A DNA stretch of 64,000 nucleotides, taken from positions 45,929 through 109,928 of the forward strand of contig DASPNE010000005.1 of the NCBI GenBank assembly GCA_035626705.1. The letters are read 5' to 3'. Each line of letters begins with the position of its first letter. Position 1 is the first letter of the stretch. Position numbers and translations under genes: made by a program. A model generated the notes under the pieces. That model was given only the letters and a program-made list of their open reading frames with translations, did no database searches and had not been told where the DNA came from. Source of the stretch: Usitatibacter sp. GTDB lineage: Bacteria; Pseudomonadota; Gammaproteobacteria; Burkholderiales; Usitatibacteraceae. Below, piece by piece: positions 23,081-39,829 of the stretch.

Positions 23081-24037
23081 CTAGTCCTGCTTGATCCCCG
23101 CCGCCTTCACCACCTCGCCGTACTTGCGCAAGTCGGTGGTGATCTGGGCGGCGAGCTCCTCGGGCGTTCCGGGCGTGGCGACGATTCCCAGCGAGGCGAG
23201 CTTCTCCACGATCGCGGGCTCGCGCAGCACGGCGTTGAGCTCCTTGTTGAGCTTCTCGACCACAGCGCGTGGTGTCTTCGCCGGCGCGAGGATCGCCACC
23301 CACGAGCTTGCGGCGAGGTCGGGAATGCCGGCTTCCATGAACGTAGGCACTTCGGGCAGCGAGGGCGTGCGCTTCTCGGAGGACACCGCGATCGGCACGA
23401 GCCGACCTGCCTTGATGTGCGACATGGCGCCCGCCACCGCCGTGAACACCAGCGGAATGTTGCCGCCGAGCGCATCGGTCATCGCCTGCCCGCCGCCCTT
23501 GTACGGCACGTGCGTGAGATTGGCGCCCGTCTTCTGCCGCAGCAACTCGCCCACGATATGCGGCGTGCCGCCCACGCCGGAGCTGCCGTAGGAAACACCT
23601 CCAGGCTGCGTCTTCGAGTGCGCGATCAGCTGCGGCAGGGACTTGGCGGGAAAGGAGGGGTGCGCCACGACGATCAGCGTGGCATCGCCGATCTTGCCCA
23701 CGGGCGCCAGGTCCTTCTGCACGTCGATGGGGAAGTTCTTGAACACGTGCGGGTTGATGACGAGCGTGCCATCGAAGCCCAGCACGAGCGTGTAGCCGTC
23801 TGGCGCCGCGCCGGCCACCTGTTGCGTGCCGATGTTGCCCGAGGCGCCCGCCTTGTTCTCCACCACGATGGACTGGCGCAGCCGGCGCGCAAGCGCCTCG
23901 GCGACCACGCGCCCGCTCGTGTCGGTCACGCCCCCGGGCGCAAACGGCACCACGAGCCGGATCGGCTTCTCGGGATATTCGGCGCGCGCCGCAAGCGCGA
24001 GAACGAACAGCAGGGCAGTGGCGAGCAGCTTCTTCAT
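23081..24037 (-). CDS. Bug-family (TctC-like) tripartite tricarboxylate transporter substrate-binding protein
   Basis: Start at MKKLLATALLFVLALAARA (ATG 24037). EYPEKPIRLVVPFAPGGVTDTSGRVVAEAL...VENKAGASGNIG...PDGYTL is the Bug-family signature. Confidence 0.9.
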   Translation of the reverse strand: MKKLLATALLFVLALAARAEYPEKPIRLVVPFAPGGVTDTSGRVVAEALARRLRQSIVVENKAGASGNIGTQQVAGAAPDGYTLVLGFDGTLVINPHVFKNFPIDVQKDLAPVGKIGDATLIVVAHPSFPAKSLPQLIAHSKTQPGGVSYGSSGVGGTPHIVGELLRQKTGANLTHVPYKGGGQAMTDALGGNIPLVFTAVAGAMSHIKAGRLVPIAVSSEKRTPSLPEVPTFMEAGIPDLAASSWVAILAPAKTPRAVVEKLNKELNAVLREPAIVEKLASLGIVATPGTPEELAAQITTDLRKYGEVVKAAGIKQD

Positions 24038-24166
24038 GGCTTCTTCCTCTTGTGATCGTGGCGGGCCTACGCTGTACGCAGCGAGCATCGCCGCCTGCGC
24101 GACTTCGCGCAAGCCCCTCCGGAGCGTCGCGATAAGAGGGAAAAACCGTTATAATTCCTGTTCTTC

Positions 24167-24243
24167 GCGCCCGTAGCTCAGTTGGATAGAGTACCTGGCT
24201 ACGAACCAGGGGGTCGTGGGTTCAAATCCTGCCGGGCGCGCCA
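24167..24243 (+). tRNA. tRNA-Arg (anticodon ACG), CCA encoded; integration target of the island
   Basis: Manual fold: acceptor GCGCCCG/CGGGCGC, D-arm GCTC..GAGT, anticodon arm CCTGG-CTACGAA-CCAGG, T-arm GTGGG-TTCAAAT-CCTGC (two G-U pairs). TATAAT at 24150-24155. Confidence 0.92.
24199..24243 (+). repeat. attL core: 3' 45 nt of tRNA-Arg (anticodon loop to CCA)
   Basis: CTACGAACCAGGGGGTCGTGGGTTCAAATCCTGCCGGGCGCGCCA, identical to 37346-37390. Confidence 0.9.
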
Positions 24244-24254
24244 AATTCAAATAG

Positions 24255-24279
24255 TTAAGGCCAGCTTCGCTGGCCTTAA
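24255..24279. terminator. Hairpin between tRNA-Arg and the integrase 3' end
   Basis: TTAAGGCCAGC-TTC-GCTGGCCTTAA. On the minus strand it is followed by a T-rich tract (CTATTTGAATTT), so it probably terminates int. Confidence 0.5.
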
Positions 24280-24325
24280 TCGCTTCTGCGGGACCCTTGC
24301 GGGACCCGTTGTCCACAGCGCCCAG

Positions 24326-25441
24326 TCAAGCATTCGCCACCCGTAGAACGGTACACGTTCCCGGGCGCCTCAAGACGAGGTTCGCCTGCGAGATCAGTCG
24401 CCCGATATCGGCGCTCGCGTAGTGACCCGCCATCGAGCGGCTTGCGTGGCCGAGCAACACTTCCCGGTCCTCCCTAGAGACCCCTGCGGCGCGCAGCCGC
24501 GCTCCAAATGTGTGTCTCAGATCGTGAACTCGCACCCGCGAAAAATCTCGAGGCGCATCGAGTCCGAATTCGCCTTTCCAGGCGGCGGCTGCCACTTTGC
24601 GGGCATTCTTCCATGCGGTGTTGTTCATCTTCCCGACGGGCTTTCCTCGATACGGAAAGACCCAAACCTTGTCCTTGTCGCGCTGGGCCTGGACGATCGA
24701 CCAAGCGACGTCGTTTAGGACCGCGACATGCGCGCGCTTGGTCTTGTAAGCCTCCGCTGGAATCACGAATACGCTGCGGCCTACTTCCGGCACGAACACT
24801 TCCCAACTCCATCGGAGGGAGCAGACATTGCCCGCGCGTAAGCCCGTGTTGACAGCGAAGAGGGCCATCCGCGCCAGATGAGCCGGAAGTCGGGGGAACA
24901 AGCGGTCCTGTTCTTCCCATGTGATCGGGTAGGGTGGCCGACGGCTTTCGGGAAGGAGGGTTATTTGCGGTGGCACACAGTCGAGCCATGGCTTGCCTTC
25001 GTCATCGCGATAGACGCGCGCCGCCCGGTTGAGGATGGTCCGGACGACCTTCAATCCGTGGTTGATGGTTGTGGGGCTTACGCCTACGGACAGCCGGTCC
25101 GCTACGAACGCTCGGAGCGTACCGTCGTGGACCAGCCTGGGTTCGAGCGTCCCGACGTAGGAGAGTAGTTGCCGCACGTGCCTCGCACTGTCCGAGACTC
25201 TTCGCTTCCCACGGGAGTCGAAAAGGTATTGAGCTGCGCAATCCGAAAACCGTGGGCGTCTATTTGCCTTTTCGTAAAGCTCAGCCTCGACCCTAGCGAT
25301 CTCCTGATGCAGCCGGTCCTCCGCTTCTTGATCGCTAACGGCGCCGAGACGCGCAAAGATTCGAACACCTCGATGCTCCTTGTCGATGATCCGGTGACCG
25401 GCCGAGTTGAGAGTGATACCGGGGGTTCGTGTGGCGGTCAT
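24326..25441 (-). CDS. int: Tyrosine-type site-specific integrase
   Basis: 371 aa. The catalytic region has ...TGLRAGNVCSLRW..., HDLRHTFGARLRAAGVS, LLGHASRSMAGHYA (R..HxxR..H..Y). Sits adjacent to the tRNA att site. Confidence 0.93.
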   Translation of the reverse strand: MTATRTPGITLNSAGHRIIDKEHRGVRIFARLGAVSDQEAEDRLHQEIARVEAELYEKANRRPRFSDCAAQYLFDSRGKRRVSDSARHVRQLLSYVGTLEPRLVHDGTLRAFVADRLSVGVSPTTINHGLKVVRTILNRAARVYRDDEGKPWLDCVPPQITLLPESRRPPYPITWEEQDRLFPRLPAHLARMALFAVNTGLRAGNVCSLRWSWEVFVPEVGRSVFVIPAEAYKTKRAHVAVLNDVAWSIVQAQRDKDKVWVFPYRGKPVGKMNNTAWKNARKVAAAAWKGEFGLDAPRDFSRVRVHDLRHTFGARLRAAGVSREDREVLLGHASRSMAGHYASADIGRLISQANLVLRRPGTCTVLRVANA

Positions 25442-25468
25442 GCTCTAGCCCTCTACGAAGAAGAAGCC

Positions 25469-25497
25469 TTGAGAGTATGTATAAAATTTGATACAAT
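25469..25497 (+). promoter_or_regulatory. Near-consensus sigma70-type promoter for the toxin-antitoxin pair
   Basis: TTGAGA (25469-25474), 17 nt, TACAAT (25492-25497). The toxin ATG at 25506 is only 8 nt after the -10, which implies a leaderless or near-leaderless mRNA. Confidence 0.55.
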
Positions 25498-25505
25498 GAC
25501 GGCAG

Positions 25506-25844
25506 ATGGATAAGCCAATCGACTGGCGAGGTTCGTCACTCGATGATCTGCGCGAGTTTCCCGAAGAGGCTCGTAAGCAGGCGGGTCATGACCTTCGGAA
25601 GCTGCAGCGCGGCCAGGCTCCAGATGACTGGCGGTCGTTTCCCGAGGTCGGGCCTGGTGCGAACGAGATCCGCATCGATTGCGCGGATGGCTGGTTCAGG
25701 GTCATGTACGTGGCAAAGTTTGAAGAGGCCATTTACGTCCTTCACAGCTTTCAGAAGGCGACACGAAAGACGAGCAAGAAGGACGTTCAGATTGCAGAAA
25801 CCCGCTATCGCGCGGTTCTGCGTGAAAGGAAGGAGCGGAAATGA
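25506..25844 (+). CDS. RelE/ParE-superfamily toxin, phage Gp49/HigB-like
   Basis: 112 aa. WRGSSLDDLREFPEEARKQAGHDLRKLQRGQAPDDWRSFPEVGPGANEIRI..FRVMYVAKFEEAIYVLHSFQKATRKTSKKDVQIAETRY matches the Gp49-type toxin pattern. Overlaps the next gene by 4 nt. Confidence 0.85.
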   Translation: MDKPIDWRGSSLDDLREFPEEARKQAGHDLRKLQRGQAPDDWRSFPEVGPGANEIRIDCADGWFRVMYVAKFEEAIYVLHSFQKATRKTSKKDVQIAETRYRAVLRERKERK

Positions 25845-26173
25845 CGATTGATACGAAATCCCGTCATCGGACGAAGGCCGACGGGAATGTCTTTTTGGAT
25901 CTTGGATTTACGCCGAAAGAGGCGAAGCGCCTCCTTAAGGAGGCTGATGCCCAGATCGACGAGTCGATTCGCCTAAAGCAGCAGCTGATGGACGAAATCG
26001 CCGTGTGGATGAAGGAAACGAGCGTGACTCAGGCAGTGGCAGCTCGAGTGCTGCAGGTGACTCGTCCTCGAGTCTCCGACGTGGTCAATCATAAGGTCGA
26101 AAAGTTTACGATCGACGCACTGGTAGGAATGTTGTCGAAGATTGGCAAGCAGGTGCGCCTTGCTGTCCAGTGA
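25841..26173 (+). CDS. XRE-family HTH antitoxin (HigA-like)
   Basis: 110 aa. ETSVTQAVAARVLQVTRPRVSDVVNHKVEKFTIDALVGMLSKIG is an HTH followed by the typical C-terminus of this antitoxin class. ATGA overlap with the toxin gene. Confidence 0.85.
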   Translation: MTIDTKSRHRTKADGNVFLDLGFTPKEAKRLLKEADAQIDESIRLKQQLMDEIAVWMKETSVTQAVAARVLQVTRPRVSDVVNHKVEKFTIDALVGMLSKIGKQVRLAVQ

Positions 26174-26208
26174 ATTGCGGCCGTGCGGCGCCTCGTGACT
26201 AGCCCCTT

Positions 26209-27090
26209 GTGCTGCTCGAACATGAGCCGTCGAACCGCGAACTTGGCGTGCTTGTAGATACCTTGGCCCCTTGGGCGGTCGGGGCAAAAGGTACGCTGCC
26301 GGAGCGCCTGACAAGTGAAGCAACAGCAGCCGGGGAGCCGGCTGCCCACGCCGCCGAACTTGTTCACCTTCTTCGTGCCCCCCTAAGCGCCGCCGAGTGC
26401 TTTCTCGACAACCTCACTGGTCTGTGGCGGTATGAATTTGGGGAGCCATTTGAAGTTGGAGCCGAGCAGGTTGTCGGCACTAACATCTGGCTCCCCGTGA
26501 ATCACTTGCTTCAAGCGCTTCAAACTGTGCATCAGCGAGTGCACGGCAATCAGCGAGAGGCTTTCCTCAATCGCTTGGCCGTAGCAGCGATGCATCGAAT
26601 AGCCCTGGCTGAGATGATTCCGGGCCGACGCACCGCCTCCGACGTACCAATGGACTTTGAGGTTGTAGGAATGGGAGCGGGAAACACCACAATCGATTGG
26701 CATGTCCGGCCAGTTGGGCAGCGTCCCGTTCTCTTGGATGTCAAGCGTAGAACTACTGATTTTCTTCAACAGATGGAGATGCATCAAGGCGGACCCGAGG
26801 TGCAACCGCCTGCGCACGACGCGGCGCTCATGTTTCGAAGTGTTGAACAGAAGTTTCGTCCAGCAGACCCAGATCAGATACTCCAGGGCGCTTGGATCGT
26901 GACCGATATCAAGCAACAAGAAGGGCGGCTCAATGACGCCTTTGCCGCACTAGATTCCGCGAAGGTACATTTCGCTGTGCTCGGCGACTGGGAGCCAGAC
27001 GGTTGCTTGCTCGTGAAACGACAGCTGGACCGCGAATACCTGTCCGCACTGTTGCGCATCGAAGCGTCAGCGCGGTTCACCTTCTCGTAG
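26209..27090 (+). CDS. Hypothetical protein (island cargo); possible PD-(D/E)xK-like motif
   Basis: 293 aa from GTG 26209 (start uncertain). No family recognised. DFEVVG...TTIDWHV-x11-VLLDVKRR (D163, D177, K179) fits a beta-strand D / (D/E)xK arrangement. Confidence 0.55.
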   Translation: MLLEHEPSNRELGVLVDTLAPWAVGAKGTLPERLTSEATAAGEPAAHAAELVHLLRAPLSAAECFLDNLTGLWRYEFGEPFEVGAEQVVGTNIWLPVNHLLQALQTVHQRVHGNQREAFLNRLAVAAMHRIALAEMIPGRRTASDVPMDFEVVGMGAGNTTIDWHVRPVGQRPVLLDVKRRTTDFLQQMEMHQGGPEVQPPAHDAALMFRSVEQKFRPADPDQILQGAWIVTDIKQQEGRLNDAFAALDSAKVHFAVLGDWEPDGCLLVKRQLDREYLSALLRIEASARFTFS

Positions 27091-27118
27091 GAAACTGTCG
27101 GGTTTGGCCTGGACTGGA

Positions 27119-27940
27119 CTAGAGAAAGCTATCGCTGCGAAGCTTGGCTACGTACGCCAAGAAATAGCGCTTGTAGACCGGAAACGTCCTGAGCGCCAGC
27201 ACGCCGGCGTCTCGTGTTCCAGCCTTTGAAAGGGCCTTCTGGAGATCCTCATCCACGAGTCGGTGCGATATCTCGTACCCGACAAACGTCTTCAACGGAA
27301 ACCAGAAGTCGCCAGCAGATTGGGGCCTGCCCGATCGCTTCGGAATTCCCATCCCAGACGTGATGATCCGCCGAGCAAAGGGACGCTCGACGAAAGACGT
27401 GCCTTTGATGATTCCATAGGGCGAGTTCCGATGGCGCTCCGTACGATGATGGCCGCTTCCCGGGAACATCCGCTCGACGGCTTCGCGTGGGTAGACGCCA
27501 ATCTCGACGGTATCCAAGAGCAGCGGCATTTGATGAAACGTCGCGCGACGTATGGCCTTTAGCGCTTCGGTTTGTGGCGTCCATCCAGAAAACAGCCGGG
27601 CCGCCCACGGCTTTCCCGTGTTCCGCTTGTATTCGACCCGCATGACTTCGGTGAGCTGTTGGGTCTTACCAACGTACTCCTCGAACGAACGTCGATACTT
27701 GGCCGGCTGGCGTCTAGAACGAAGTAACTCGCGATAGGCGCGCTCCAGCTCGAGATAGACAATTTCCGAATCGTGGGGGTCACATCGGATTCGATCCAAC
27801 AGGCGCGCCATGGCCCATTGTCCATCACTCTTCGTAGAGTGGTCTAACGCGCTCGCCTTCGGCACGCCAGACAACACCGCCACCGGGTGCCGGTAGCTCA
27901 CCTGATGAGCTTGGAGCAGTATACGCTCAGTGGCAGCCAA
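27119..27940 (-). CDS. Hypothetical protein (island cargo)
   Basis: The ORF is open from TTG 27940. ATG 27811 (MARLLDRIRCDPHD..) is a more conventional start and would leave a 150-bp divergent promoter region. No family recognised. Confidence 0.5.
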   Translation of the reverse strand: MAATERILLQAHQVSYRHPVAVLSGVPKASALDHSTKSDGQWAMARLLDRIRCDPHDSEIVYLELERAYRELLRSRRQPAKYRRSFEEYVGKTQQLTEVMRVEYKRNTGKPWAARLFSGWTPQTEALKAIRRATFHQMPLLLDTVEIGVYPREAVERMFPGSGHHRTERHRNSPYGIIKGTSFVERPFARRIITSGMGIPKRSGRPQSAGDFWFPLKTFVGYEISHRLVDEDLQKALSKAGTRDAGVLALRTFPVYKRYFLAYVAKLRSDSFL

Positions 27941-27961
27941 CTGAGGAAAGGCGAGATCGAG

Positions 27962-28225
27962 ATGAAACGCAAGCGGCGGGATGAGGACTCCGAGATCGCG
28001 GAGATTCTTGGGCCATTTCGCCGAGCTGCGGCCACGGCGTCGCTCGGACTAGTGCTGGGCCTGGGATGGGTCGTCTGTGCCATCGTGGGGGCCGCGGAGG
28101 CAGGGGTGGCGGCGCCAGTCGTCCGGCTGTTCACCACGGTCTTTGGCTGGGGTGCGCTCGGACTGCTGAGCCTGAGTATTGTCCGGTTCAGCTGGGCATA
28201 TCTGAGACTGAGGTTTCCAGGTTAG
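27962..28225 (+). CDS. Small two-TM membrane protein (cassette gene A1)
   Basis: ATG 27962 after AGGAAAGG. MKRKRRDEDSEIAEILGPFRRAAATASLGLVLGLGWVVCAIVGA...FGWGALGLLSLSIVRFSW. The ORF is open from 27887. Confidence 0.55.
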   Translation: MKRKRRDEDSEIAEILGPFRRAAATASLGLVLGLGWVVCAIVGAAEAGVAAPVVRLFTTVFGWGALGLLSLSIVRFSWAYLRLRFPG

Positions 28226-28261
28226 TTCGGACGAGTTGCGCGGCGGAGGAGGGCGCAGGGC

Positions 28262-29074
28262 ATGGAATTGATCGTCGGCGTCTTTGTGATCGTCGTCTTG
28301 TGGCTTGGTGTGAAAGCGCTTGCCACTCTCGGGTCGGAGCCGAAGAGCGACGCCTCTAGAGGAGGGGCCAAGCGGGTCGAAGCCACGAGCAAGCAATCGG
28401 TCCTTGACTCAAATATCGGATGGTTGCGTGAGCGATGGGTAGAGGCTGAAACGGCGAAAGCGGCGGGCGCCTTGAGTTACTTCCCGAAATGGTTCTTTGA
28501 TCCGGCGACGGATAAGCAATTGACCCGGTTGCAGAGGATGGGTGTTCGCCTGTCGGGAGGGGAGCTTACGAAGGGCGCAGCCTCCGACATCATCGGCCTG
28601 TTTGAGGATCCGGAGAGCTCCGATATGGATGTTCTAAAGTTCTTCAAGATGAAGTTGTCGCCGGAGCAGAAGAACGAGACGCGAGTCCGTCACGAGATCA
28701 GCAAGCTCTTCCAAGACCCGGAGAAGCTCACTGCATGGCGCGGCCGCCCTGCAGATGGGATGCAGAAGGAGTTCTATCGGTTCTTTTCACTCAAGATCCC
28801 GTCTGGGCTGACATACGAAGAAGCAGAGACGACGATTCGAGAAGCAGACATACCGGACGCCGAATTTGATGCTTGGCGGGATTTCGAGAATGTGTGTGAC
28901 GAGCTTGCGGATAGAAGCACGCTCGAGGACTACGGTCTACGCAAGCCCTCCTTGCCGGTCATCCGCGCTGCCTACGATGACCTACGAAAGACGGCACCTA
29001 AGGACGCCAACGACCCAATGTCGGTTGCAGAAAAGATACTGCAATTGAAGCCAGAGCTCGCGCGGGAGAGGTAG
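28262..29074 (+). CDS. N-terminally membrane-anchored hypothetical protein (cassette gene A2)
   Basis: 270 aa. GGAGGG lies 8 nt upstream. TM helix MELIVGVFVIVVLWLGVKALATL, then a soluble region with loosely repeated ~35-aa segments (..DKQLTRLQRMGVRLSGGELTKGAASDII.. and ..QKEFYRFFSLKIPSGLTYEEAETTI..). Confidence 0.65.
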   Translation: MELIVGVFVIVVLWLGVKALATLGSEPKSDASRGGAKRVEATSKQSVLDSNIGWLRERWVEAETAKAAGALSYFPKWFFDPATDKQLTRLQRMGVRLSGGELTKGAASDIIGLFEDPESSDMDVLKFFKMKLSPEQKNETRVRHEISKLFQDPEKLTAWRGRPADGMQKEFYRFFSLKIPSGLTYEEAETTIREADIPDAEFDAWRDFENVCDELADRSTLEDYGLRKPSLPVIRAAYDDLRKTAPKDANDPMSVAEKILQLKPELARER

Positions 29075-29076
29075 GG

Positions 29077-29730
29077 ATGCCCAACTGGCTGCTAAAGACG
29101 ATGGATCACCCTCTGTGGCGTGGTCTAGAGGGGGTCCACACGCTCGTCTGGGTCTATAGCACCTTAACCACCGGCGCCGTAGCTCGCGTTGGGTACCTGC
29201 AGGGGATGCCCACGATATGGATCGTCGTTGGAGCAATCGTTCTCTTTGTTCTGCTCATATCGATCGGATACGCAATCTACCTATACACGGGCTTCTACTC
29301 TCTGCATGAGGCATCGATCAAGGCTTACAACGAGCTGCGGCATTTGGGTCTCGGCGCACTCTCCAAGGGCTACTCGAACGTAGCTGGAAGTGACGCAGAC
29401 GGCGATGGTGTTTTGGACGAAGTGGGAACGCACTTGAGCCAAGTGGTGACGATCTACGGACGAGACCCTCCCGCGACAGTTCTTGACCCTCTGCCACTGT
29501 GGCTTTTCCCCCAAGGAAACATTTCCCAAGGCGCAAGAGAGTTTCGCCGATACGGTGAGACGACGGCGTTTTACAAGGACCTGGCGATTCGTCGAAGCGA
29601 TTTGCGCGTTGCCATCAAAGCCATTCGAGGGTACTTCGAGCACGAGGAGGCCGTACGCGAGGGGCGGGCTAAGGCGAAGGCAGCAGAGGCCGTAGCAGCC
29701 GGAGAATCGGATCCGGATGCGGCTTCATAG
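29077..29730 (+). CDS. Membrane protein, unknown function (cassette gene A3)
   Basis: 217 aa. Starts 2 nt after the A2 stop. Central TM helix TIWIVVGAIVLFVLLISIGYAIYLY and an acidic/Ala-rich tail. Confidence 0.65.
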   Translation: MPNWLLKTMDHPLWRGLEGVHTLVWVYSTLTTGAVARVGYLQGMPTIWIVVGAIVLFVLLISIGYAIYLYTGFYSLHEASIKAYNELRHLGLGALSKGYSNVAGSDADGDGVLDEVGTHLSQVVTIYGRDPPATVLDPLPLWLFPQGNISQGAREFRRYGETTAFYKDLAIRRSDLRVAIKAIRGYFEHEEAVREGRAKAKAAEAVAAGESDPDAAS

Positions 29731-29776
29731 CCCGCCGGCAACAGAAAATTCTAGGTGAGGTAGTGCGGGCGCCCTG

Positions 29777-30427
29777 ATGGCTTCTCGAAACGTCAAGCAG
29801 CGTCTTCTCGAAGATATGCGAGACGGGCTCCGACAATCGGTTGAGTACTTCAGCTCGAGCAACAAAGGCGAGCGAGAGCGCTGGTGTTGCCAGGAGTTTG
29901 TGCGGAACCTCAATGTTCGGCCCTGGAGTAGATCCTTTGTTTCACCCGATGAGGATCCGCCCGACGTCATCTATCGCGATGCGCGGTTCGAGGTAAAGGA
30001 GGTACTTGATGCTGGAAGGCGGCGTCACCACGAGTACCGTCAAGCGCTAGAAGAGGCGCTGGGCGCCAAGGACCCGGCGGAATTGATGAAAGAGTACAGT
30101 CCCAAAGACATCACGCCCCTCCAAGTCGGCGAACTCGTGCAGTCGCAAGTTCACAAATTGCGGCGGAAGTACGACCCCAAGCTCCAGCGGTCGCTAGACT
30201 TGCTGGTGTATGTAAACCTCTTGGAGACCTTGCTGGGCAGGGGTGCAATGCCCAATCCCGCGGCGTTTGAGAATTCCGGGTGGCGCTCAGTCTCAGCGCT
30301 CTTCGGGTGGAATTCGCTAGTCTTTTATGCGGAGCGGTCTGCTCCGAAGCTGATTCGGGATTCGGCAGGGGCAGTCGTGCTAAGAGCAAGAAAGCTGGTT
30401 GAGAGCCAGCCCAATCGAAAAAAGTAG
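29777..30427 (+). CDS. PD-(D/E)xK nuclease-like protein (cassette gene A4)
   Basis: 216 aa. ..ERERWCCQEFVRNL...DEDPPDVIYRDARFEVKEVLDAGRRRH.. gives helix-E, PD (D63) and ExK (E71, K73) in canonical order. It resembles what I recall of the DUF1780 putative endonuclease family (unverified). Confidence 0.6.
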   Translation: MASRNVKQRLLEDMRDGLRQSVEYFSSSNKGERERWCCQEFVRNLNVRPWSRSFVSPDEDPPDVIYRDARFEVKEVLDAGRRRHHEYRQALEEALGAKDPAELMKEYSPKDITPLQVGELVQSQVHKLRRKYDPKLQRSLDLLVYVNLLETLLGRGAMPNPAAFENSGWRSVSALFGWNSLVFYAERSAPKLIRDSAGAVVLRARKLVESQPNRKK

Positions 30428-30435
30428 GAACGGAG

Positions 30436-31026
30436 ATGCTGCCCGAGTTTTCAGAGACTAAGAGGATGTTTGCCCGGTTCTTCCAGACATACGCCCGGCG
30501 GCGTGCGCGGGCGGTGTCTCCGCTTGCTGAAGTTCAAGTTCGTTTTCTGCACGAGGGCAGAGGCATGAGGGTTGCGCGCGCTGATCAATCTCAATCGAGC
30601 AGTGCCGTCCAGCTCCTCTCCAGCACGATGGAAATCAAGTTCGATGAAATACCTGAACTGACCCTCCAGAAGACGATGGCCAAGTTCGACGAGATGATTC
30701 TGGATATGGTGCGCCAGCAGACGGGGTTCGCCTTGGAGCGGATCGGCGAGGAGATTCCAGACAGTCAGAGTGTCGATGCCAAGGGCAAGACGCTCGACGC
30801 CGAGCTCATGCTTCAGGTTCTAGAGACGCTTCAGATGGAGTTCCACTCCGATGGTCAACCCCACCAACTCCATGTCTTCGGGGGGCTCTTCACTGCCGAG
30901 CGGCAAAAGGCAATAGACGAGCAGTTTCAGAACGATCCCGACTTGCAGATACGGCTTGATGAGGTGATCGCAAAGAAGAGAGAAGAATGGCGTGCTAGAG
31001 AGGCTTGTCGAAAACTGGTTGGATAG
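30436..31026 (+). CDS. Hypothetical protein (cassette gene A5)
   Basis: 196 aa. AGGAACGGAG precedes the ATG, 8 nt after the A4 stop. No motif recognised. Confidence 0.6.
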   Translation: MLPEFSETKRMFARFFQTYARRRARAVSPLAEVQVRFLHEGRGMRVARADQSQSSSAVQLLSSTMEIKFDEIPELTLQKTMAKFDEMILDMVRQQTGFALERIGEEIPDSQSVDAKGKTLDAELMLQVLETLQMEFHSDGQPHQLHVFGGLFTAERQKAIDEQFQNDPDLQIRLDEVIAKKREEWRAREACRKLVG

Positions 31027-32617
31027 CGCCAGCGAGCGGAGCTATCAACGCTGCTTCTGCCAGATGCTGACCGGGCAGGGGTTTCACATCGTGCACAGCA
31101 CTGAGCACACGCCGCTTGAGTTCGGCAAGGATGTTATTGCGGTTTCTCCTGATGGCAAGCTCGTTGGCTATCAACTCAAGGGGCATCCTGACGGAACGCT
31201 TAAACCGCGGGACTTCGATAGCATTCGGGGCCAGCTGGAACAGCTTGCGACGCTGGCCGTAGCGATCGCGGGCTTTGAGGGAAGGGTTCCAGAAGAGTGC
31301 TACCTGGTTACCAACGGCGATATCGATGAGGCCGTCTATCACCAAATTCAGCTTCTCAACGCGAGCCTCGTTCAGCGCGGCCATCCTCCAGGAAAGATAA
31401 GAACAATTACGCGCGGGCAGCTGTTGGACTGGGCGCAGTCGCTTGGGCTGTCCCTATGGCCTTCCGAGATGCAGGACTTCGGAAATCTCGTAAAGCTGCT
31501 CAATTGCAGCGGAGATGAGATGTTCCCAGTCCAGATTTTTGATCCTCTTCTGCGCAATACGCTGAACTTCGAGGGCGAGCTCAAGAGCGCGGAATTGAGT
31601 CGCCGGGTGACGAGTGCGGGCGTAATGACTGCCGTAGCGCTTCATTCGTTCTCGCGTCAGAGGAACCATGTCGCGGAGATCACTGCGTGGACCATGTTTG
31701 CTACCTACTCGATTGCCGCTTGCGAGAAGAATGGCATCGACTATTCGAAGCATTGCAGTGAGGCCGTGCTTTCGGCACGAGATAGCATCTACGATCTCCT
31801 TGGACTGCTCTGCGAGGAAGCATCTGAGCGGAGAGTCATGTTCGAGGGTGATCCGTACAGTGAATTTGCTTTCTATCGGCCGCGGTTGCTTCTGATCTCC
31901 GCCCTCATGGCGGTCTACTGGATTTGGTCACAGGGAAGCACATGGACGCGGCCTCACCACAAGGCCCTCGTCGAGAAGCTCATTCCCCAAGCTCTCCCTC
32001 CTAGGTGGCTTTGGGGTGAAGGGGCGATCCCGAGTTTCTTGACTTACATTTGGTTTCGCAAAATGGTCGCGCCATCAGATGGCAACGACATGATCGTCGC
32101 GAAAGTTCTGGCGGCCCTGCTGCGCAACAAGTTAGGTGATGACGGAGAGCCGCTGGCATCCCCGTATTACGACGCGGAGGAGGTGGCGCAGCATCAATAC
32201 CGCGAGCTTCTTGGTTGTCCCGACCCATTCGAAGGTGACAGCTTCGAAGGTCATAGCTACTCATGCGAAAGCCTGTTGATGTGTCTCGTTCGGTCAGACT
32301 TGAAGATGGTTTGCCAGGAGCTCTGGCCGGATTTCACAAAGATCGGGCATGAGCGCGTTGTGCCGGATCAGGCCTGGCAGTTCGGCCTCTACCGTACGGG
32401 GGATGCAGCGACGAATGAGACGAAGATGTATCCGCCGATGATGCGATGGAGCGAGCTTCAGGAAATCTGTCAGGAATCCATGGCGATAGACGTTCCCGCA
32501 GCGTTGAAGGCCGACCCTGGTCTACTGCTGCTCTTTGTCAACCTCTTCCCGTTTCGCGCCACTTTCTCCGCAGTGAGGTTTTTGCACCGAGAGTTTGACG
32601 AAAAGACCGCTGTCTGA
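30992..32617 (+). CDS. Large hypothetical protein with Mrr-like N-terminal nuclease motif (cassette gene A6)
   Basis: 541 aa from GTG 30992, overlapping A5 by 35 nt (start uncertain). The N-terminus ..SERSYQRCFCQMLTGQGFHIVHSTEHTPLEFGKDVIAVSPDGKLVGYQLKG.. gives E..D47..Q61-x-K63, as in Mrr-type restriction folds. The remaining ~430 aa are helix-rich and unassigned. Confidence 0.6.
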   Translation: MLERLVENWLDSASERSYQRCFCQMLTGQGFHIVHSTEHTPLEFGKDVIAVSPDGKLVGYQLKGHPDGTLKPRDFDSIRGQLEQLATLAVAIAGFEGRVPEECYLVTNGDIDEAVYHQIQLLNASLVQRGHPPGKIRTITRGQLLDWAQSLGLSLWPSEMQDFGNLVKLLNCSGDEMFPVQIFDPLLRNTLNFEGELKSAELSRRVTSAGVMTAVALHSFSRQRNHVAEITAWTMFATYSIAACEKNGIDYSKHCSEAVLSARDSIYDLLGLLCEEASERRVMFEGDPYSEFAFYRPRLLLISALMAVYWIWSQGSTWTRPHHKALVEKLIPQALPPRWLWGEGAIPSFLTYIWFRKMVAPSDGNDMIVAKVLAALLRNKLGDDGEPLASPYYDAEEVAQHQYRELLGCPDPFEGDSFEGHSYSCESLLMCLVRSDLKMVCQELWPDFTKIGHERVVPDQAWQFGLYRTGDAATNETKMYPPMMRWSELQEICQESMAIDVPAALKADPGLLLLFVNLFPFRATFSAVRFLHREFDEKTAV

Positions 32618-32690
32618 CGGTGGGTACGATGCCGGTATGTTCGCGATCTCGGCCAAAGTCGTCGCGCGAAATTGAAGGAGATGGATAAGG

Positions 32691-33671
32691 CTAAGGCTGG
32701 GCCGTCGCGAATGCTTGTTCGATCTCCGCTAGCAGCTCTTTCCTCGTCGTCGCGGGAATCTCTGCATCAGGAATGTAAGTATCGAAGCTCGAGGTGCGCA
32801 CGCTGATCGAGTCGTCCAGCAAAGCGGGGAGATCCTCGACCCCTTCCAGTCTGTGGAACTGAATCTTGTGCGGCTGGGCACCGTTAGCGATCCGGATGAA
32901 GGCGACGATGTTGCGGATCGAGACGTCAATGAGCTGCAGCCCGCGGATCATCGGCTCGGGTTCCCAGTTCACAGTGTGCCGGCGCGATCGCTTGCTGCGC
33001 GTGCCTGGCACGTCGGGCCCGGCTCTCTCGATCGCGTAGAAGGTAGAGCCCGTGTCTGAGCCGCCGAGGTACTTCATCTCCTCAGGGGGCGGCGCAACTC
33101 CGAACTGGTGCTCCAAGCCGAATGCGATCTTGACCCCCGAGGATCGGATGCGAAACCCGTGTTTGAGGCTGTTGTACTCGGCCTGGCTCATCTCGTTGAG
33201 GAACTCGCCGGCGAAGATGCTCCAAAGCCGCCCGAACGACTCGGCCGTCTTCGGCCAGCCGTTCTCCTGCGTGCAATGCGCGAACACCCGCTGGGCCAGG
33301 CCCGCCCAGGTCCGATTCCACTGGGTGATCTCGCTGTGGAGCGTGGGATCGCCCTTCGAAATGCGCTCGATCACCCCGCGCAGCAGATCAGTCTTGGCGA
33401 GTGCGACCCATGCGTAGGGCGCCTGCGGCGCCTGCACCGCAGCGGCAGCGAGGGTCATCAGCGTCTCGATGCCGTGCAGGTAGGCCATGCGCGTAGCGGT
33501 GGCCACACGGCGCTTATGCTCGGCCGAGTCGAGCTTCTCTGCGTGCGCCTCGGCAAGGTAGCTGAAGAAGGCGGGATCGATCGAGTCCAGGAACTCTGTG
33601 GTCCTCGTCGCGGGATCAGGATCCCAGAGGCTGTACGGCTCGTCGTTGACGATGAACGAGAAATGATTCAT
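32691..33671 (-). CDS. Hypothetical protein (island operon B, distal gene)
   Basis: 326 aa, ATG 33671. No family recognised; no TM helix or signal peptide. Confidence 0.6.
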   Translation of the reverse strand: MNHFSFIVNDEPYSLWDPDPATRTTEFLDSIDPAFFSYLAEAHAEKLDSAEHKRRVATATRMAYLHGIETLMTLAAAAVQAPQAPYAWVALAKTDLLRGVIERISKGDPTLHSEITQWNRTWAGLAQRVFAHCTQENGWPKTAESFGRLWSIFAGEFLNEMSQAEYNSLKHGFRIRSSGVKIAFGLEHQFGVAPPPEEMKYLGGSDTGSTFYAIERAGPDVPGTRSKRSRRHTVNWEPEPMIRGLQLIDVSIRNIVAFIRIANGAQPHKIQFHRLEGVEDLPALLDDSISVRTSSFDTYIPDAEIPATTRKELLAEIEQAFATAQP

Positions 33672-33857
33672 TGCAAGCTCGATTTACCAGCTAGTTCGCC
33701 ATTCTCGCACCGACAAGCTCAGGTTCTTGGATCGTGTTCGCGGCTGTCATCGATTGCGACCAGGCGCAGATGGGCATGCCATCTCTCCCGGCCGCAAAGT
33801 AAGGCGAGTGAGGGGTGGGTATCTTGCGGAGCCCTCATGCAGCGCTATGCGCCCGAT

Positions 33858-35939
33858 CTAACCCCAGTCGACATCGGGATAGGCCGGATTCAATGACTTG
33901 ATCTCAGCGTGGATCTGCTGAAGGGCCGACTTTGTGTACTCGCGGGCCGTCATATCGACATTTCTAAATTCACCAAAGAGCATTCGAAGATCTGTTACGT
34001 GACAACCAAGGAAGGCAATGGTCTTGAGGGTTTTGGCGACCCGGATCAATCGCTTCGGATCCCGGTGCAAGAGGGGATACACGTGTTCGCCTCCGCTAAC
34101 CCAATGCGTTCCGTTGTTTTCCGCGGCATTGGCAAGCTTGTCAGCCAATCGATCGATCATCAGCTCGAAGAGGATGATGGTCGCATCAGGCGCCTTGCGG
34201 GAGGTTTGCTCATAGAGGAGTCCGAACATCGACGCGGCGCCATCGTCATATCGCGATTCCCAGAAGAGGGGCAAGTATTCCTCAATCTCCGCAAAGTGAA
34301 TGGCGTCCTGCTCCAGAACCTTCCAAAAGTGCCACGCCAGGGAAGATCGAATCGAATTCGAGCCGCGTCGAATTTGCTGTTGTAACAGGTTCTCGAAGGG
34401 GGTTGGATCGAAATCTCCTAAGTCCTCGTAATGATGCTTGCGGAAGAAGGCGAAGTACATGAGGAGGGCGGCGAGCTCGCGATCAAGGTAGTCGGCATTA
34501 GCATCGAGTAGTACAGAGAGAACCTCGAAGGCTTCTTGGGCCGTCAAGTCCCGGTAGTTGCCAAATACCTGGGCAAGGGCTCGCAAAACGCGGGGGAACT
34601 CGCGATTCGCTTGCAGCGCCTCAAACGCGAGCCGCCCAACCCGCTGCTGCTCTGCAGGTGCCCAGTCGAATGCTGAGCCATCGGAGTTTTTGGTGCACCT
34701 ACGCCTTTGCACGAAGCACTGCAGAACGTGTATTGCCTGTATGCGGATGTACAGATTCGGTTCGCGTAAGTATCGCTCGATGATATCGACGATCTCGCCA
34801 TAGAGATCAGGGCGGTTGAGTTCGACGATTCTCATCATGAGCCAGCAAAGATGCCCGCGAACCGTGGTGATGAGGCCAACATCCTCCCCCCGAAGGGTCT
34901 GTAGGTGGTAGTTGAATCGTCCCTCGGAATCGCTGGGGTCGTTTTCGCCAGAAGGATCGGGATCGGGGTCGTTACACAGGGCTCGCAGAATCCAGACTCC
35001 ATCCTCAATTGCGCCGTCCTTGACGAACTGCTGCGCGATACGAGCGAGGTTCTCACGCGCGTGTCTGTCTGCGAGCCAGTCCGTGCCGCCAACCGCGACT
35101 GTCCTGCGCTTCACGTACTCGAAAGCCCGCCTGTCGTTGTCTCCGAGCTGGCAACTCAGGGTCTCGACCAACAGAGGCGATACGTCGCCGTCGACGGACA
35201 CACTACGTATGGCGTCGTAGATCGTCCGTTCGAAGATCTTGCGGAAATGCCCTTGACCCGAGGTGAAGTAGACGAGATCGATATTCTCGAGTTTGCCGAA
35301 GTCGAGTTGCGTTAGAGCATGAATCGCATCGTTGCCTTCAACGAAGAATGCCCAGTTCTGTACAAGGATGATTCTCTCGTGCCCGCTCGTCGCCAGCTGG
35401 AGGTTCTTGGTTGGCAGGAGATCCAAGAAGGCTCGAAGCGAAGTCCCCTTTGAATCAACCCAACGCGCTTCAGCGGTGCCGCTGAAAGTGACGGTCTTCA
35501 GGCTGGGGATTCGACGATATTGAAAGCCGTCGGCCTCAAAATCGTCAGAGGTCGGGTTCGACGCGATGGTCGCCTCGAGACGATCAGCCAAGTCGATTGA
35601 GAAGGTACGAAGGTCTGCCTTCTTGAGCGTGAAGTACGGCGTGGAGATCAGGAAGCCCTCAATGCCTCGCCGAGTGAGCTCGTCTTTGAGAACTCCGACC
35701 ACCTCGCTCCACACTTTCTCTTTGGCAAGAGCCTTTCCGTCCTCCACAAGCCTGAAAATCTCGACGGCGACCTTTCTCCCTCCGGCATCCTCGAGTTGGT
35801 AGTCGAAGTCCTTCTTCGACGAAGGGTTGGGGCGGACGTCGCGACCGGTGATGGCGTACGAGGTTTGACGCACATCGCCGAGATGGCGCATGAATCTCTC
35901 TATCGCTTCCTCTTCCCACTGTTCTTTCGACGCAGTCAT
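33858..35939 (-). CDS. Large hypothetical protein, helical-repeat C-terminal region (island operon B, proximal gene)
   Basis: 693 aa, ATG 35939. The N-terminal ~230 aa are mixed alpha/beta (..KKDFDYQLEDAGGRKVAVEIFRL..). The C-terminal ~400 aa look like HEAT/ARM-style helical repeats. No NTPase motif seen. Confidence 0.65.
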   Translation of the reverse strand: MTASKEQWEEEAIERFMRHLGDVRQTSYAITGRDVRPNPSSKKDFDYQLEDAGGRKVAVEIFRLVEDGKALAKEKVWSEVVGVLKDELTRRGIEGFLISTPYFTLKKADLRTFSIDLADRLEATIASNPTSDDFEADGFQYRRIPSLKTVTFSGTAEARWVDSKGTSLRAFLDLLPTKNLQLATSGHERIILVQNWAFFVEGNDAIHALTQLDFGKLENIDLVYFTSGQGHFRKIFERTIYDAIRSVSVDGDVSPLLVETLSCQLGDNDRRAFEYVKRRTVAVGGTDWLADRHARENLARIAQQFVKDGAIEDGVWILRALCNDPDPDPSGENDPSDSEGRFNYHLQTLRGEDVGLITTVRGHLCWLMMRIVELNRPDLYGEIVDIIERYLREPNLYIRIQAIHVLQCFVQRRRCTKNSDGSAFDWAPAEQQRVGRLAFEALQANREFPRVLRALAQVFGNYRDLTAQEAFEVLSVLLDANADYLDRELAALLMYFAFFRKHHYEDLGDFDPTPFENLLQQQIRRGSNSIRSSLAWHFWKVLEQDAIHFAEIEEYLPLFWESRYDDGAASMFGLLYEQTSRKAPDATIILFELMIDRLADKLANAAENNGTHWVSGGEHVYPLLHRDPKRLIRVAKTLKTIAFLGCHVTDLRMLFGEFRNVDMTAREYTKSALQQIHAEIKSLNPAYPDVDWG

Positions 35940-36265
35940 GTCGCGAAGCTGGGTGCTCTGTCGGTCATGTGGTGCGGTCCTTATTCTGCCGGCCTAGTCG
36001 CGCCAGTTACACCTTCGCTAGCACCGCCATAGTGTGACTTTGCGAGTTACGGGTTTCGCCGTTGATTCCCTTGCCAGCTTGCTTGAAACTTGACCGCCCG
36101 TTTTGCGGCGGGTTCGCGCTGCAGCACGTTCCGCGTATACCCATATCTCCTGTGGTCCGCTCCTGCTAGTTGCGTGGACTCAATTAGAGCGAAAATGAGC
36201 GGGTTCCTGAACAGCTGCCCTAGCGCTTGCTCACGGACAGTCGACTATGAAGAGGCGGCATTGCC

Positions 36266-37087
36266 ATGACTCTCCTTGTGTGTTGGGCTGGCATTGACCC
36301 TCATGGGACATCCTCCCTTTATATTGCAAGTGACAGCCGACTTTCCTGGGACAAGTCGACCGTCTTCGACTCGGGTCGCAAGGTCTTTGCATTTTCTGGA
36401 TGGCCTGACATTCTTGGCTATTGCGGGGACGTTCTCTTCCCGTCGCTGGCACTCAATCAGATCGTCAACTTGGCGGACGCCGGTCTCCTGTTTGCCCCGA
36501 ATTTCTCTCCGAAGCAGAAGTTTCAAGCGATTGTCGACAAGCTTAACGACCTCGTCGCGGACTACCCAGCCGCGCGCGCGGGTTTGGCGGTGAACAAGCT
36601 GACGATCGTTCATGGATCGCGCGATCCTCATGCAAAGGGCGTCTTCTTCTGCCATTCGATCTCTTGGGCGAATGGAAAATGGGGAGGGGAGGAGAAGCAG
36701 ATGCCCGCTGCGTCGGATGTCCTATTTGTGGAGGGGACCGGCGCACGCGCTTTCAATGAAAACCTTGTTCGGTATCGAGATGGACCAAACAGGAGGACCA
36801 GTCGTGCGGTTTTTCATTGCTTCTGTGATGCCCTCGCACATCCGGTGGATTACACGGTGGGAGGACCTCCCCAACTCGTTGGATTAATTCGGAATCCAGA
36901 CTCTGCCGCGCTCACGTTTGGAGTCGTTTATGAGGGAAAGCGGACATTTTTGGGGGCTCATGTCGACAACCTGAGAAGCTTTGATAAAGTGCAGTGGCGG
37001 AACGCCAACTTTGAGCTCTGCGACGGCCGCACTTTGAAGAAGCTTCCAAATGCACAACCACAGCCTGACCCCTTGCGCAGGTTGTGA
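36266..37087 (+). CDS. Hypothetical protein; candidate N-terminal-nucleophile (proteasome/HslV-like) hydrolase
   Basis: 273 aa. MTLLVCWAGIDPHGTSSLYIASDSRLSWDKSTVFDSGRKVFAF has Thr directly after Met, a beta-strand, A-x-D-S-R, and a Lys 16 residues after the Asp. This is the same D-to-K spacing as proteasome beta D17/K33. Confidence 0.6.
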   Translation: MTLLVCWAGIDPHGTSSLYIASDSRLSWDKSTVFDSGRKVFAFSGWPDILGYCGDVLFPSLALNQIVNLADAGLLFAPNFSPKQKFQAIVDKLNDLVADYPAARAGLAVNKLTIVHGSRDPHAKGVFFCHSISWANGKWGGEEKQMPAASDVLFVEGTGARAFNENLVRYRDGPNRRTSRAVFHCFCDALAHPVDYTVGGPPQLVGLIRNPDSAALTFGVVYEGKRTFLGAHVDNLRSFDKVQWRNANFELCDGRTLKKLPNAQPQPDPLRRL

Positions 37088-37137
37088 AAGAGCAACTCCC
37101 TGGACTCCGGAAACGGAGGGCGAGGTGCTGTCGGGAG

Positions 37138-37155
37138 CAGATGCCTAGGCATCTG
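37138..37155. repeat. Perfect 18-bp palindrome near the right island end
   Basis: CAGATGCCTAGGCATCTG reads identically on both strands. It lies 50 bp after the last island gene and 190 bp before attR. Confidence 0.7.
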
Positions 37156-37345
37156 TTCCCTACTCAGGGTTAGCGAGCGCTCTAGGCAGCGGAAGTTGCC
37201 CGCGGATGGTGAGGGCTCGGGACGGATTGGCTAGCAAGACTTCTGCAAGGCCTTGTGGAACACTGTCGATCGCTGTAGAGCAGAACTGATGCAACGGGCA
37301 GCTCTGCGAGGGTTGTGAATCAATGACTTACCCTTGGTTCAAACC

Positions 37346-37390
37346 CTACGAACCAGGGGGTCGTGGGTTCAAATCCTGCCGGGCGCGCCA
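37346..37390 (+). repeat. attR core: duplicate of the 3' 45 nt of tRNA-Arg
   Basis: Identical to 24199-24243. The preceding sequence (..GGTTCAAACC) does not continue the tRNA, so this is a remnant and not a second tRNA gene. Confidence 0.9.
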
Positions 37391-37397
37391 GAATTGC

Positions 37398-37433
37398 AAG
37401 GGCTTGGTTTCGAAAACCAAGCCCTTTTTTGTT
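37398..37433 (+). terminator. Intrinsic terminator (the presumed original tRNA-Arg terminator)
   Basis: AAGGGCTTGGTTT-CGA-AAACCAAGCCCTT (13-bp stem) followed by TTTTGTT. Confidence 0.85.
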
Positions 37434-37554
37434 CGCGCCGGGCGTGCGAGCACGGTCATGCCGGTGGATAGGAGTGCAAGGAGGTGTGGGACCGCCACCT
37501 CATGCGCTCGCGCGTTTAGGCTAGACTCGCCCTTCTTCCCACCGGAGGCCACCC

Positions 37555-37821
37555 ATGGACGTGAGCACCGACAAGCTGGTACAGGACTTGCGCACCGTCG
37601 TCGCCGATGCCGAGGAGCTCCTCAAGGCCACGGCCGAGAACACCGGCGAATCCGTCATGCGCGCGCGGGCGCGGGCCGAAGAGTCGTTGCGCTCCGCGCG
37701 CGTCACGCTGCAGAACGCTGGCGTGCGCATCGAGGACGAGGTCCGAAAGCATCCGTGGCAATCCCTGGGTGTCGCCGCGTGCGCGGGGCTCATCCTCGGC
37801 GTGCTGATCGCGCGCAAGTAG
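37555..37821 (+). CDS. yqjD: YqjD/ElaB-family (DUF883) membrane-anchored stress protein
   Basis: 88 aa. DKLVQDLRTVVADAEELLKATAENTGE...VRKHPWQSLGVAACAGLILGVLIARK is the typical DUF883 layout with a C-terminal TM helix. Confidence 0.88.
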   Translation: MDVSTDKLVQDLRTVVADAEELLKATAENTGESVMRARARAEESLRSARVTLQNAGVRIEDEVRKHPWQSLGVAACAGLILGVLIARK

Positions 37822-37827
37822 CCTGCC

Positions 37828-38444: not shown

Positions 38445-38467
38445 CAGGCCCTTCCGGAGAGACTCTC

Positions 38468-39816: not shown

Positions 39817-39829
39817 CGGCGCACGCGCC

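Follow-up and report, generated by a model that had tools for sequence, protein, structure and literature searches.

A 13.1-kb integrase island in a tRNA-Arg gene of an uncultured Burkholderiales bacterium carries compact candidate defence modules

Introduction

Genomic islands integrated into tRNA genes (tDNAs) have been catalogued in Islander, where a 3' fragment of the tRNA gene accompanies 3760 of 3919 islands and an attP centred on the anticodon is found in 2083 (PMC4383910). At tRNA hotspots, small integrase elements that do not transmit themselves have been described that carry a toxin-antitoxin (TA) pair together with variable modules whose relatives lie in defence islands, among them the hotspot mobile genetic elements (MGEs) of E. 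coli, P4-like satellites and Pseudomonas genomic islands (PMC10121019, PMC9122126, PMC12629846). Here we analyse a 64-kb stretch of DNA from Usitatibacter sp. (GenBank assembly GCA_035626705.1, contig DASPNE010000005.1, positions 45,929 to 109,928; hereafter the window), in which positions 24244-37390 are very probably an integrative tDNA genomic island of 13.1 kb inserted in a tRNA-Arg(ACG) gene. The island belongs to the commonest tDNA class, that with a 3' fragment and a crossover in the anticodon loop. It falls within all the filters applied to Islander islands with the corresponding 'A' crossover, including the length range of 2-200 kb, and differs from them in no structural respect (PMC4383910); its host is an uncultured high-G+C Burkholderiales bacterium and its cargo is nearly all unannotated. 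With the hotspot elements it shares small size, an integrase, a TA pair and variable modules with relatives in defence islands, but unlike them it has no cargo besides the TA pair that matches a known defence system in PADLOC, and no hallmark genes of satellites or of integrative and mobilizable elements (IMEs) were found in it.

A tRNA-Arg gene regenerated at one end of the island

The two ends of the island are defined by the following features.

24167-24243, + strand: intact tRNA-Arg(ACG) with encoded CCA, the regenerated target gene at attL (ARAGORN, sequence)
24199-24243, + strand: attL identity block, 45 nt, from the anticodon loop to CCA (exact repeat)
24255-24279, no strand assigned: hairpin with an 11-bp stem (read from the sequence)
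24326-25441, - strand: tyrosine integrase, 371 aa (PF00589, 2.5e-17)
37346-37390, + strand: attR, the displaced 3' fragment of tRNA-Arg, 45 nt (exact repeat)
37398-37433, + strand: intrinsic terminator, 13-bp stem and T-run (terminator scan, sequence)

The 3' part of the tRNA gene, a 45-mer that reads CTACGAACC...GCGCGCCA (in full CTACGAACCAGGGGGTCGTGGGTTCAAATCCTGCCGGGCGCGCCA), occurs in exactly two copies on the same strand, at 24199-24243 and 37346-37390, and is by far the longest direct repeat of the region (repeat family D1). Across 100 dinucleotide-preserving shuffles, with three mismatches allowed, there were 0 chance matches. Identity stops sharply at the 5' edge, where position 24198 is G and position 37345 is C, and the identity block therefore extends from the anticodon loop to the encoded CCA. 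Seven bases past the distal repeat begins a stem-loop of 13 pairs with a 3-nt loop (37398-37426), and TTTTTGTT comes after it; this site ranks first among the terminator-like sites of the 13.7 kb scanned and is presumably the original terminator of the tRNA gene. The integrase gene points at the tRNA, with its stop codon 82 bp from the tRNA 3' end. An intact tRNA at one end, a cognate fragment in the same orientation downstream and, within the interval, a PF00589 integrase of neither the Xer nor the integron type are the arrangement by which Islander recognises tDNA islands. The original prediction, made from the sequence of this DNA, had proposed a tRNA-Arg island with a perfect 45-bp repeat, a strong terminator after its distal copy and an integrase about 80 bp from the tRNA and facing it, all of which we find.

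This anatomy shows that the element inserted into the 3' part of tRNA-Arg, that the gene was regenerated and that its old 3' end and terminator were displaced. In the mechanism that we propose, the attP of a circular form would have included 45 nt identical to the 3' part of tRNA-Arg(ACG), and the island's tyrosine integrase would have recombined this site with the chromosomal tRNA gene by a crossover at or near the anticodon loop. The gene was thereby split; the island-borne copy now completes a functional tRNA at attL, and the original 3' fragment, together with the tRNA terminator, moved 13 kb downstream to attR. The hairpin at 24255-24279 (TTAAGGCCAGC-TTC-GCTGGCCTTAA) has a perfect stem and lies inside the island, 12 nt past the regenerated tRNA; it was not called by the consensus terminator scan. 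It is possibly the terminator of the convergent - strand integrase gene, and it may substitute for the displaced tRNA terminator.

The integrase translation shows LRAGN, YKTKR, HDLRH, LLGH and GHY, and the catalytic signature is thus intact. Its scores fall below the equivalog cut-offs of both XerA (23 versus 220 bits) and XerC (16 versus 335 bits). Two viral contigs in IMG/VR (45 kb and 61 kb) have terminal integrases with which it shares 47% identity, and by sequence its lineage is phage-like. A search of the island for internal repeats or arm sites returned nothing convincing.

Composition and codon usage change at both repeats

The G+C content of the island is 57.6% (54.6-65.8% in 500-bp windows), as against 67.2% in the left flank and 68.1% in the right flank. 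G+C at third codon positions (GC3) is 0.59-0.73 in the island genes, 0.82 in orf326 alone, and 0.88-0.91 in five flanking genes. In 4-kb blocks, the tetranucleotide distance to the window background is 0.40-0.47 for the island, 0.12-0.21 for blocks wholly outside it and 0.22 for the block that spans attR. The shifts in composition and codon usage begin and end at both repeats (24.2-37.4 kb), and no comparable shift in composition occurs anywhere else in the 64-kb window. Deviation from host composition, a further mark of tDNA islands, is thus present, and the windowed check of G+C and codon usage that had been set beforehand came out with a shift that coincides with the repeats. The lower G+C inside was foreseen; the contrast had been overstated, at 48-58% inside versus about 70% outside. 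Since neither G+C nor GC3 has drifted towards host values, composition argues for a recent arrival.

The same occupied locus in independent assemblies

When the integrase and the YqjD-family protein of the flank were used for exact look-ups, this locus appeared in several independent assemblies from ENA, JGI and Logan. All recovered copies are 100% identical to the window, come from the same clonal population and are occupied at every junction; the junctions on metagenome contigs are exclusively of the attL or attR type. ENA contig ERZ27257325 k141_895936 (18,962 bp) corresponds to window positions 23952-42913 at 100% identity and covers the left flank, the entire island and the right flank, hence both junctions. 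The arrangement of the island is not an assembly artefact. An artefact, in which a tRNA fragment recurs by chance or duplication or foreign DNA was joined chimerically at the tRNA repeat, might have been suspected in that the window apparently derives from an assembled metagenome (the only record of orf541 is a 120-kb JGI contig), that tRNAs are repeats shared between sequences and that one further locus (L095, below) shows alternative joins. That reading is effectively refuted: the shuffles gave 0 matches, the composition boundaries coincide with the repeats, and the MEGAHIT-style k141 assembly at ENA and those of JGI and Logan reproduce both junctions at 100% identity, with one contig spanning the island.

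A degenerate pattern was built to match attL, attR, attB and attP, and was run on metagenome and viral contigs; the predicted attB junction is ...GAGTACCTGG followed by the 45-mer and GAATTGCAAGGGCTTGG, and the predicted attP junction ...TTGGTTCAAACC followed by the 45-mer and AATTCAAATAGTTAAGG. The single metagenome match, L095 (JGI Ga0196976_1004270, 1-4760), is an attL-type junction in which the tRNA-Arg and 706 bp of the island end are 100% identical to the window over 24163-24949. Its upstream 3.96 kb have no similarity to the window, a G+C content of 69%, and genes for a chromate transporter and an amidohydrolase. In L095 this island possibly occupies a second tRNA-Arg locus or belongs to a second strain.

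Several results weigh against an element that is or was mobile. The join in L095 may be chimeric, made during assembly by way of the 77-nt tRNA. The att pattern revealed neither an attB nor an attP junction; it had no match in viral contigs and none beyond L095 in the metagenome collection, where a negative is weak because the collection evidently does not hold short contigs known to carry junctions. Of the small open reading frames (ORFs), none could be recognised as encoding an excisionase or a recombination directionality factor. The genome collection was compared in one scan with the flanking PLD gene as query; the 80 loci returned showed no empty site, had no tRNA-Arg near the PLD gene and are non-syntenic. 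In that scan the nearest genome is a Burkholderiales metagenome-assembled genome (MAG), with 73% protein identity for the PLD gene, and Polaromonas, Ramlibacter and Caenimonas come next at about 55%; nucleotide similarity ends at the PLD gene. Since no attB, attP or empty site was found, mobility, past or present, is something that we infer rather than observe.

These results bear directly on the alternative that the island is an old, fixed insertion that no longer excises and behaves as ordinary chromosome. The lack of attB and attP junctions in any assembly, the uniform identity and occupancy of the sampled copies and the lack of a recognisable excisionase would all be expected of such an insertion, yet the repeats are perfect (45/45 nt), full-length genes encode the integrase and the cargo, G+C and GC3 show no drift to host values, and L095 suggests a second insertion context. 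We consider a fixed insertion unlikely, and take the element as an integrative island in what follows.

A toxin-antitoxin pair beside the integrase

25469-25497, + strand: promoter-like site upstream of higB, TTGAGA-17 nt-TACAAT, 10/12 matches, with TG (consensus scan)
25506-25844, + strand: HigB-like toxin with the Gp49/RelE fold, 112 aa (PF05973, 1.5e-25)
25841-26173, + strand: HigA-like helix-turn-helix (HTH) antitoxin, 110 aa (PF13744 HTH_37, 1.3e-15)

The pair adjoins the integrase, with the toxin gene first and a 4-bp overlap between the two genes. Scores of 89.5 bits for PF05973 (cut-off 23.9) and 57.4 bits for PF13744 (cut-off 27) assign it, by sequence, to HigBA-like modules. With type II HigBA modules it shares the toxin-first order, a RelE-fold toxin and an overlapping HTH antitoxin gene; it differs in that the island proteins score below the NCBIfam HigA and RelE/ParE equivalog cut-offs. 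Promoter-like sites are no more numerous in the region than expected from shuffled sequence.

The cargo lacks the hallmarks of phages, satellites and conjugative elements

Besides the HigBA-like pair the island encodes 11 cargo ORFs, which agree with independent gene calls on metagenome copies. The original prediction had given the same count and named the HigBA-like pair as the only recognisable family; the first two points stand, and the last fails for the ORF at 29777-30427, a DUF1780 protein (PF08682, 1e-26). NCBIfam and PHROGs scans of the cargo found nothing.

Capsid, portal, terminase, tail and lysis domains, like primase and replicase domains, were absent from the cargo ORFs scanned with Pfam, NCBIfam and PHROGs. 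Relaxase, coupling protein and type IV secretion system domains were absent from the Pfam and NCBIfam scans, so at the protein level the island does not qualify as an integrative and conjugative element (ICE) or an IME. Of the features of phage satellites it has only the integrase, with no match in PHROGs or Pfam to an AlpA/Stl regulator, a primase-replicase or a packaging-redirection protein. The island thus cannot be recognised as a prophage, satellite, ICE or IME, in agreement with the prediction that it was neither a prophage nor an ICE, and its lack of transfer or packaging genes of its own would make it rely for transfer on transformation, transduction or a helper element.

A decayed prophage or a helper-packaged satellite of the phage-inducible chromosomal island (PICI) or P4-like kind could nonetheless be hidden in these ORFs if they were diverged replication, regulation or capsid-redirecting genes. 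A length of 13 kb is typical of satellites, the 47% identity to the integrases at IMG/VR contig ends fits such an origin, and satellites often occupy tRNA genes and carry defence hotspots (PMC9122126, PMC10121019). However, 0 of 10 cargo proteins (orf106 not included) match any of 38,880 PHROGs families, Pfam returns no primase, helicase, AlpA, terminase, capsid or portal match, pattern scans of IMG/VR yield no relatives of orf541, orf693 or orf270, and the att junction pattern is absent from IMG/VR. A prophage or satellite is accordingly improbable, and we favour an integrase island whose cargo is of another kind.

orf196 and orf541 form a conserved gene pair

30436-31026, + strand: orf196, small partner of orf541 (106 homologues, no match in the Pfam scans made)
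30992-32617, + strand: orf541, predicted N-terminal PD-(D/E)xK fold (about residues 1-140) and all-alpha C-terminal domain (homologues, AlphaFold 2 (AF2), Foldseek)

orf541 has at least 181 full-length homologues, which come from Beta-, Gamma- and Alphaproteobacteria and from Geobacter, carry only hypothetical annotations and lack any Pfam domain; orf196, orf693 and orf273b, like orf541, align with their homologues over the full length. The 35-nt overlap between orf196 and orf541 is present in 8/8 contexts, the window and seven others, and these two are the only island genes common to the seven other contexts. The six-gene run from orf106 to orf541 was also considered as one conserved system and rejected, as only this pair recurs elsewhere. 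The seven contexts are the following.

L092, Geobacter pelophilus: between hsdR-hsdS and hsdM, with PDC-S11 (2e-139), a second PDC-S11-like protein and a protein with an LmuA-like N-terminus, beside Tn7-like genes
L093, Roseomonas: the pair alone, near an H-NS gene and tuf
L094: inside an integrase/RecT island
L096: terminal in a PM2-like prophage
L097: next to AddAB-like genes
L098: immediately following a SIR2-like gene, beside an integrase
L107: between an AAA_15 ATPase (HEC-01A/AriA/PtuA-like, 1e-26) and HEPN_AbiU2

PADLOC matches occur only among these neighbours of homologues elsewhere, to PDC-S11, LmuA-like, SIR2 and AriA/PtuA-like proteins. In the Geobacter pelophilus locus (JAHCVJ010000001.1, 5201-18002) a type I restriction-modification (R-M) operon is split by six inserted genes, in the order hsdR-hsdS-[orf196 homologue, orf541 homologue, 282-aa protein, PDC-S11, PDC-S11-like, 559-aa protein with LmuA-like N-terminus]-hsdM, and the insert adjoins Tn7-like tniB and rve genes. 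In L096 (GCA_028280715.1, about 1-11653) the pair forms the terminal accessory genes of a prophage-like block that contains a rolling-circle Rep-like gene and a PM2-type double-jelly-roll capsid gene (P2_N/P2_C).

The AF2 model of orf541, built from a 42-sequence alignment (pLDDT 87.9), has an N-terminal alpha-beta-beta-beta-alpha-beta domain followed by a 390-residue all-alpha domain. The modelled N-terminal elements are helices (2-28), three strands (32-36, 48-51 and 57-63), a helix (72-87) and a strand (102-107), and the invariant residues of the family are E43, K46, D47 and Q61-L-K63, the last a Q61-x-K63 motif. Against the PDB, Foldseek places NucS/EndoMS, Card1 and Hjc at the top for this domain (probability 0.94-1.0, E 0.1-0.8), and the structural matches in BFVD are Mrr-type and VRR-NUC nucleases. 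The modelled core topology together with D47...Q61-x-K63 would thus place the N-terminus in the PD-(D/E)xK superfamily. orf541 shares this predicted core and motif with PD-(D/E)xK effectors and restriction enzymes such as NucS/EndoMS, Card1, Mrr and Hjc, whereas these nucleases have no counterpart of its 390-aa all-alpha domain or of an obligate 196-aa partner, and known sensor domains such as CARF and SAVED are absent from orf541 itself. The PDB, searched by sequence and by profile with orf541 and orf196, gave nothing significant, and orf541 had no plasmid or phage matches.

orf693 and orf273b

33858-35939, - strand: orf693, N-terminal alpha/beta domain and C-terminal HEAT/ARM solenoid (AF2, Foldseek, homologues)
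36266-37087, + strand: orf273b, candidate Ntn hydrolase of the proteasome-beta/HslV-like kind (family motifs, profile alignments)

orf693 has 52 homologues at 31-51% identity, mostly in bacteria of the Candidate Phyla Radiation (CPR); those with a named source (40-44% identity) are from CPR/Patescibacteria MAGs (Taylor-, Jorgensen-, Brenner- and Gracilibacteria). Such a distribution points to gene flow between very distant lineages. Among its relatives in L099-L101, one neighbourhood holds an MmeI-type methyltransferase, an SNF2/PLD helicase and an integrase, another MutH and a LexA-fused methyltransferase, and another AbiEi/AbiEii and an E2-ThiF-JAB cluster. In the AF2 model (pLDDT 88.9) the solenoid matches importins and transportins (Foldseek, E 2e-4), and the N-terminal domain has a restriction-endonuclease-like topology in which the conserved motif reads D46...E60-x-x-R63 in place of the canonical ExK. 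Neither orf693 nor orf326 had a significant match when the PDB was searched by sequence and profile, and orf693 had no plasmid matches. The neighbouring orf326 was tried as a conserved partner of orf693 and found no support, the genes downstream of orf693 homologues being unrelated to it.

The orf273b family comprises 764 clusters at 50% identity and has no Pfam, NCBIfam, PHROGs or PADLOC model. Bacterial proteasome-like N-terminal nucleophile (Ntn) hydrolases include HslV, Anbu and BPH. Conserved positions of the family are Met1-Thr2, D23, K39 and G157-S-G159, that is, Met1-Thr2, an Asp about 21 residues on, a Lys 16 further and a G-S-G; in profile alignments these motifs fall on Thr1, Glu/Asp17, Lys33 and Ser129 of proteasome beta/HslV. 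A profile search of the PDB returned archaeal proteasome beta subunits only (E about 1), with D23 and K39 aligned to Glu17 and Lys33, and an hhalign comparison with E. coli HslV, the sequence of which was confirmed against the PDB, aligned the Thr, Asp and Lys with an E-value of 0.0085 but a probability of 4.7%. The proteins differ in length (about 270 aa for orf273b, about 175-200 aa for proteasome-like Ntn hydrolases), the alignment statistics are weak, and Pfam Proteasome had no match in 40 members of the family. orf273b is possibly a proteasome-like Ntn hydrolase, which from these motifs we regard as a lead. One homologue adjoins an orf693 homologue in L101; on plasmids, the homologues lie downstream of variable larger genes (directly in 2/3), in integrase or TA neighbourhoods. 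orf273b had no phage matches, and a literature search on proteasome-like defence proteins found nothing relevant.

The remaining cargo genes and the flanks

26209-27090, + strand: orf293 (called as a gene on metagenome copies)
27119-27811, - strand: orf230, an ORF extendable to 27940 (gene calls on L001 and L008)
27905-28225, + strand: orf106, small membrane protein, first of six same-strand genes (gene call, hydrophobic segment)
28262-29074, + strand: orf270, with an N-terminal membrane anchor (hydropathy)
29077-29730, + strand: orf217, membrane protein (hydropathy)
29777-30427, + strand: DUF1780 protein of the PD-(D/E)xK superfamily (PF08682, 1e-26)
32691-33671, - strand: orf326 (composition, plasmid homologue)

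In Pfam, NCBIfam, PADLOC and PHROGs, no family match was found for orf293, orf230, orf270 or orf217; orf293 had no plasmid homologue either. Three small membrane proteins stand before the DUF1780 gene, and a literature search on DUF1780 led to a survey of the PD-(D/E)xK superfamily (PMC3424549). orf326 stands apart in composition, with a G+C content of 0.63 and a GC3 of 0.82 where other island genes have about 0.56 and 0.59-0.73. Because of this GC3, a separate origin of orf326 is suggested, and with it a cargo that is itself a mosaic. The only plasmid homologue of orf326 (Deinococcus, 30% identity) adjoins an MmeI-type methyltransferase.

The island lies between a tctC flank and a yqjD flank. 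The right flank (37555-39274) consists of a yqjD (DUF883)-yqjE (Phage_holin_3_6 family)-yqjK cluster, after which follow genes for a 268-aa protein with no assigned function, for a protein with a FlgO domain and for one of the PLD family. All are ordinary genes of the chromosome, and their GC3 is host-like.

Discussion

The whole is probably best explained as an integrase island with TA stabilisation, a mosaic of anti-phage or anti-MGE cargo and helper-dependent transfer. The HigBA-like pair would probably stabilise the island, and the rest of it would be a mosaic of accessory modules, most likely directed against phages or mobile DNA. In this scheme orf196 and orf541 would use a nuclease for defence or exclusion, with sensing and regulation provided by the helical domain and the small partner; orf693, with its nuclease-like domain and HEAT solenoid, would form a second module with orf273b and possibly orf326; and the DUF1780 nuclease-fold protein, preceded by the three small membrane proteins, would be a further one. 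Transfer between cells would proceed by way of a helper element, transduction or transformation.

By their homologues, the families of orf196 and orf541, orf693 and orf273b are widespread, conserved and uncharacterised rather than orphans, and their relatives occur in defence-island contexts. The reading of this cargo as defence has evidence on its debit side as well. The case is one of guilt by association, in eight contexts for orf541 and in four for orf693 (the window and L099-L101), and the association of orf273b comprises three annotated plasmid contexts and L101. No model of PADLOC-DB v2.0.0 matched any of the 11 cargo proteins besides the TA pair. The predicted nuclease fold of orf541 rests on weak E-values (0.1-0.8), and the N-terminal domain of orf693 may be catalytically inactive, since D...ExxR replaces D...ExK.

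That at least one of the uncharacterised modules functions in defence has, in our estimate, slightly less than an even chance, which is in line with published screens, where candidates picked by defence-island association have reportedly been validated at rates of roughly 35-60%. A more specific proposal, which we put forward tentatively and regard as doubtful, is that orf196 and orf541 (30436-32617) constitute an undescribed, widely distributed two-gene anti-phage or anti-MGE system, in which a PD-(D/E)xK effector is fused to a new all-alpha sensor, is controlled by its partner and travels, as one cassette, among type I R-M operons, prophages and tRNA islands; orf693 and orf273b may be a second such system, shared by Burkholderiales and CPR bacteria.

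The island itself is conceptually nothing new, because thousands of tRNA-integrated integrase islands have been catalogued. Its value is that of a pointer: a single compact element with clean boundaries, found in an uncultured Burkholderiales bacterium of soil type, brings together at least three conserved families that have no Pfam, NCBIfam or PADLOC model, and relatives of these in unrelated phyla recur in R-M operons, in prophages and beside Abi, SIR2 and ATPase defence genes. New defence systems have been discovered through this neighbourhood signature before. The modules here are short, and the cargo offers three compact candidate systems that are missing from current family and defence libraries.

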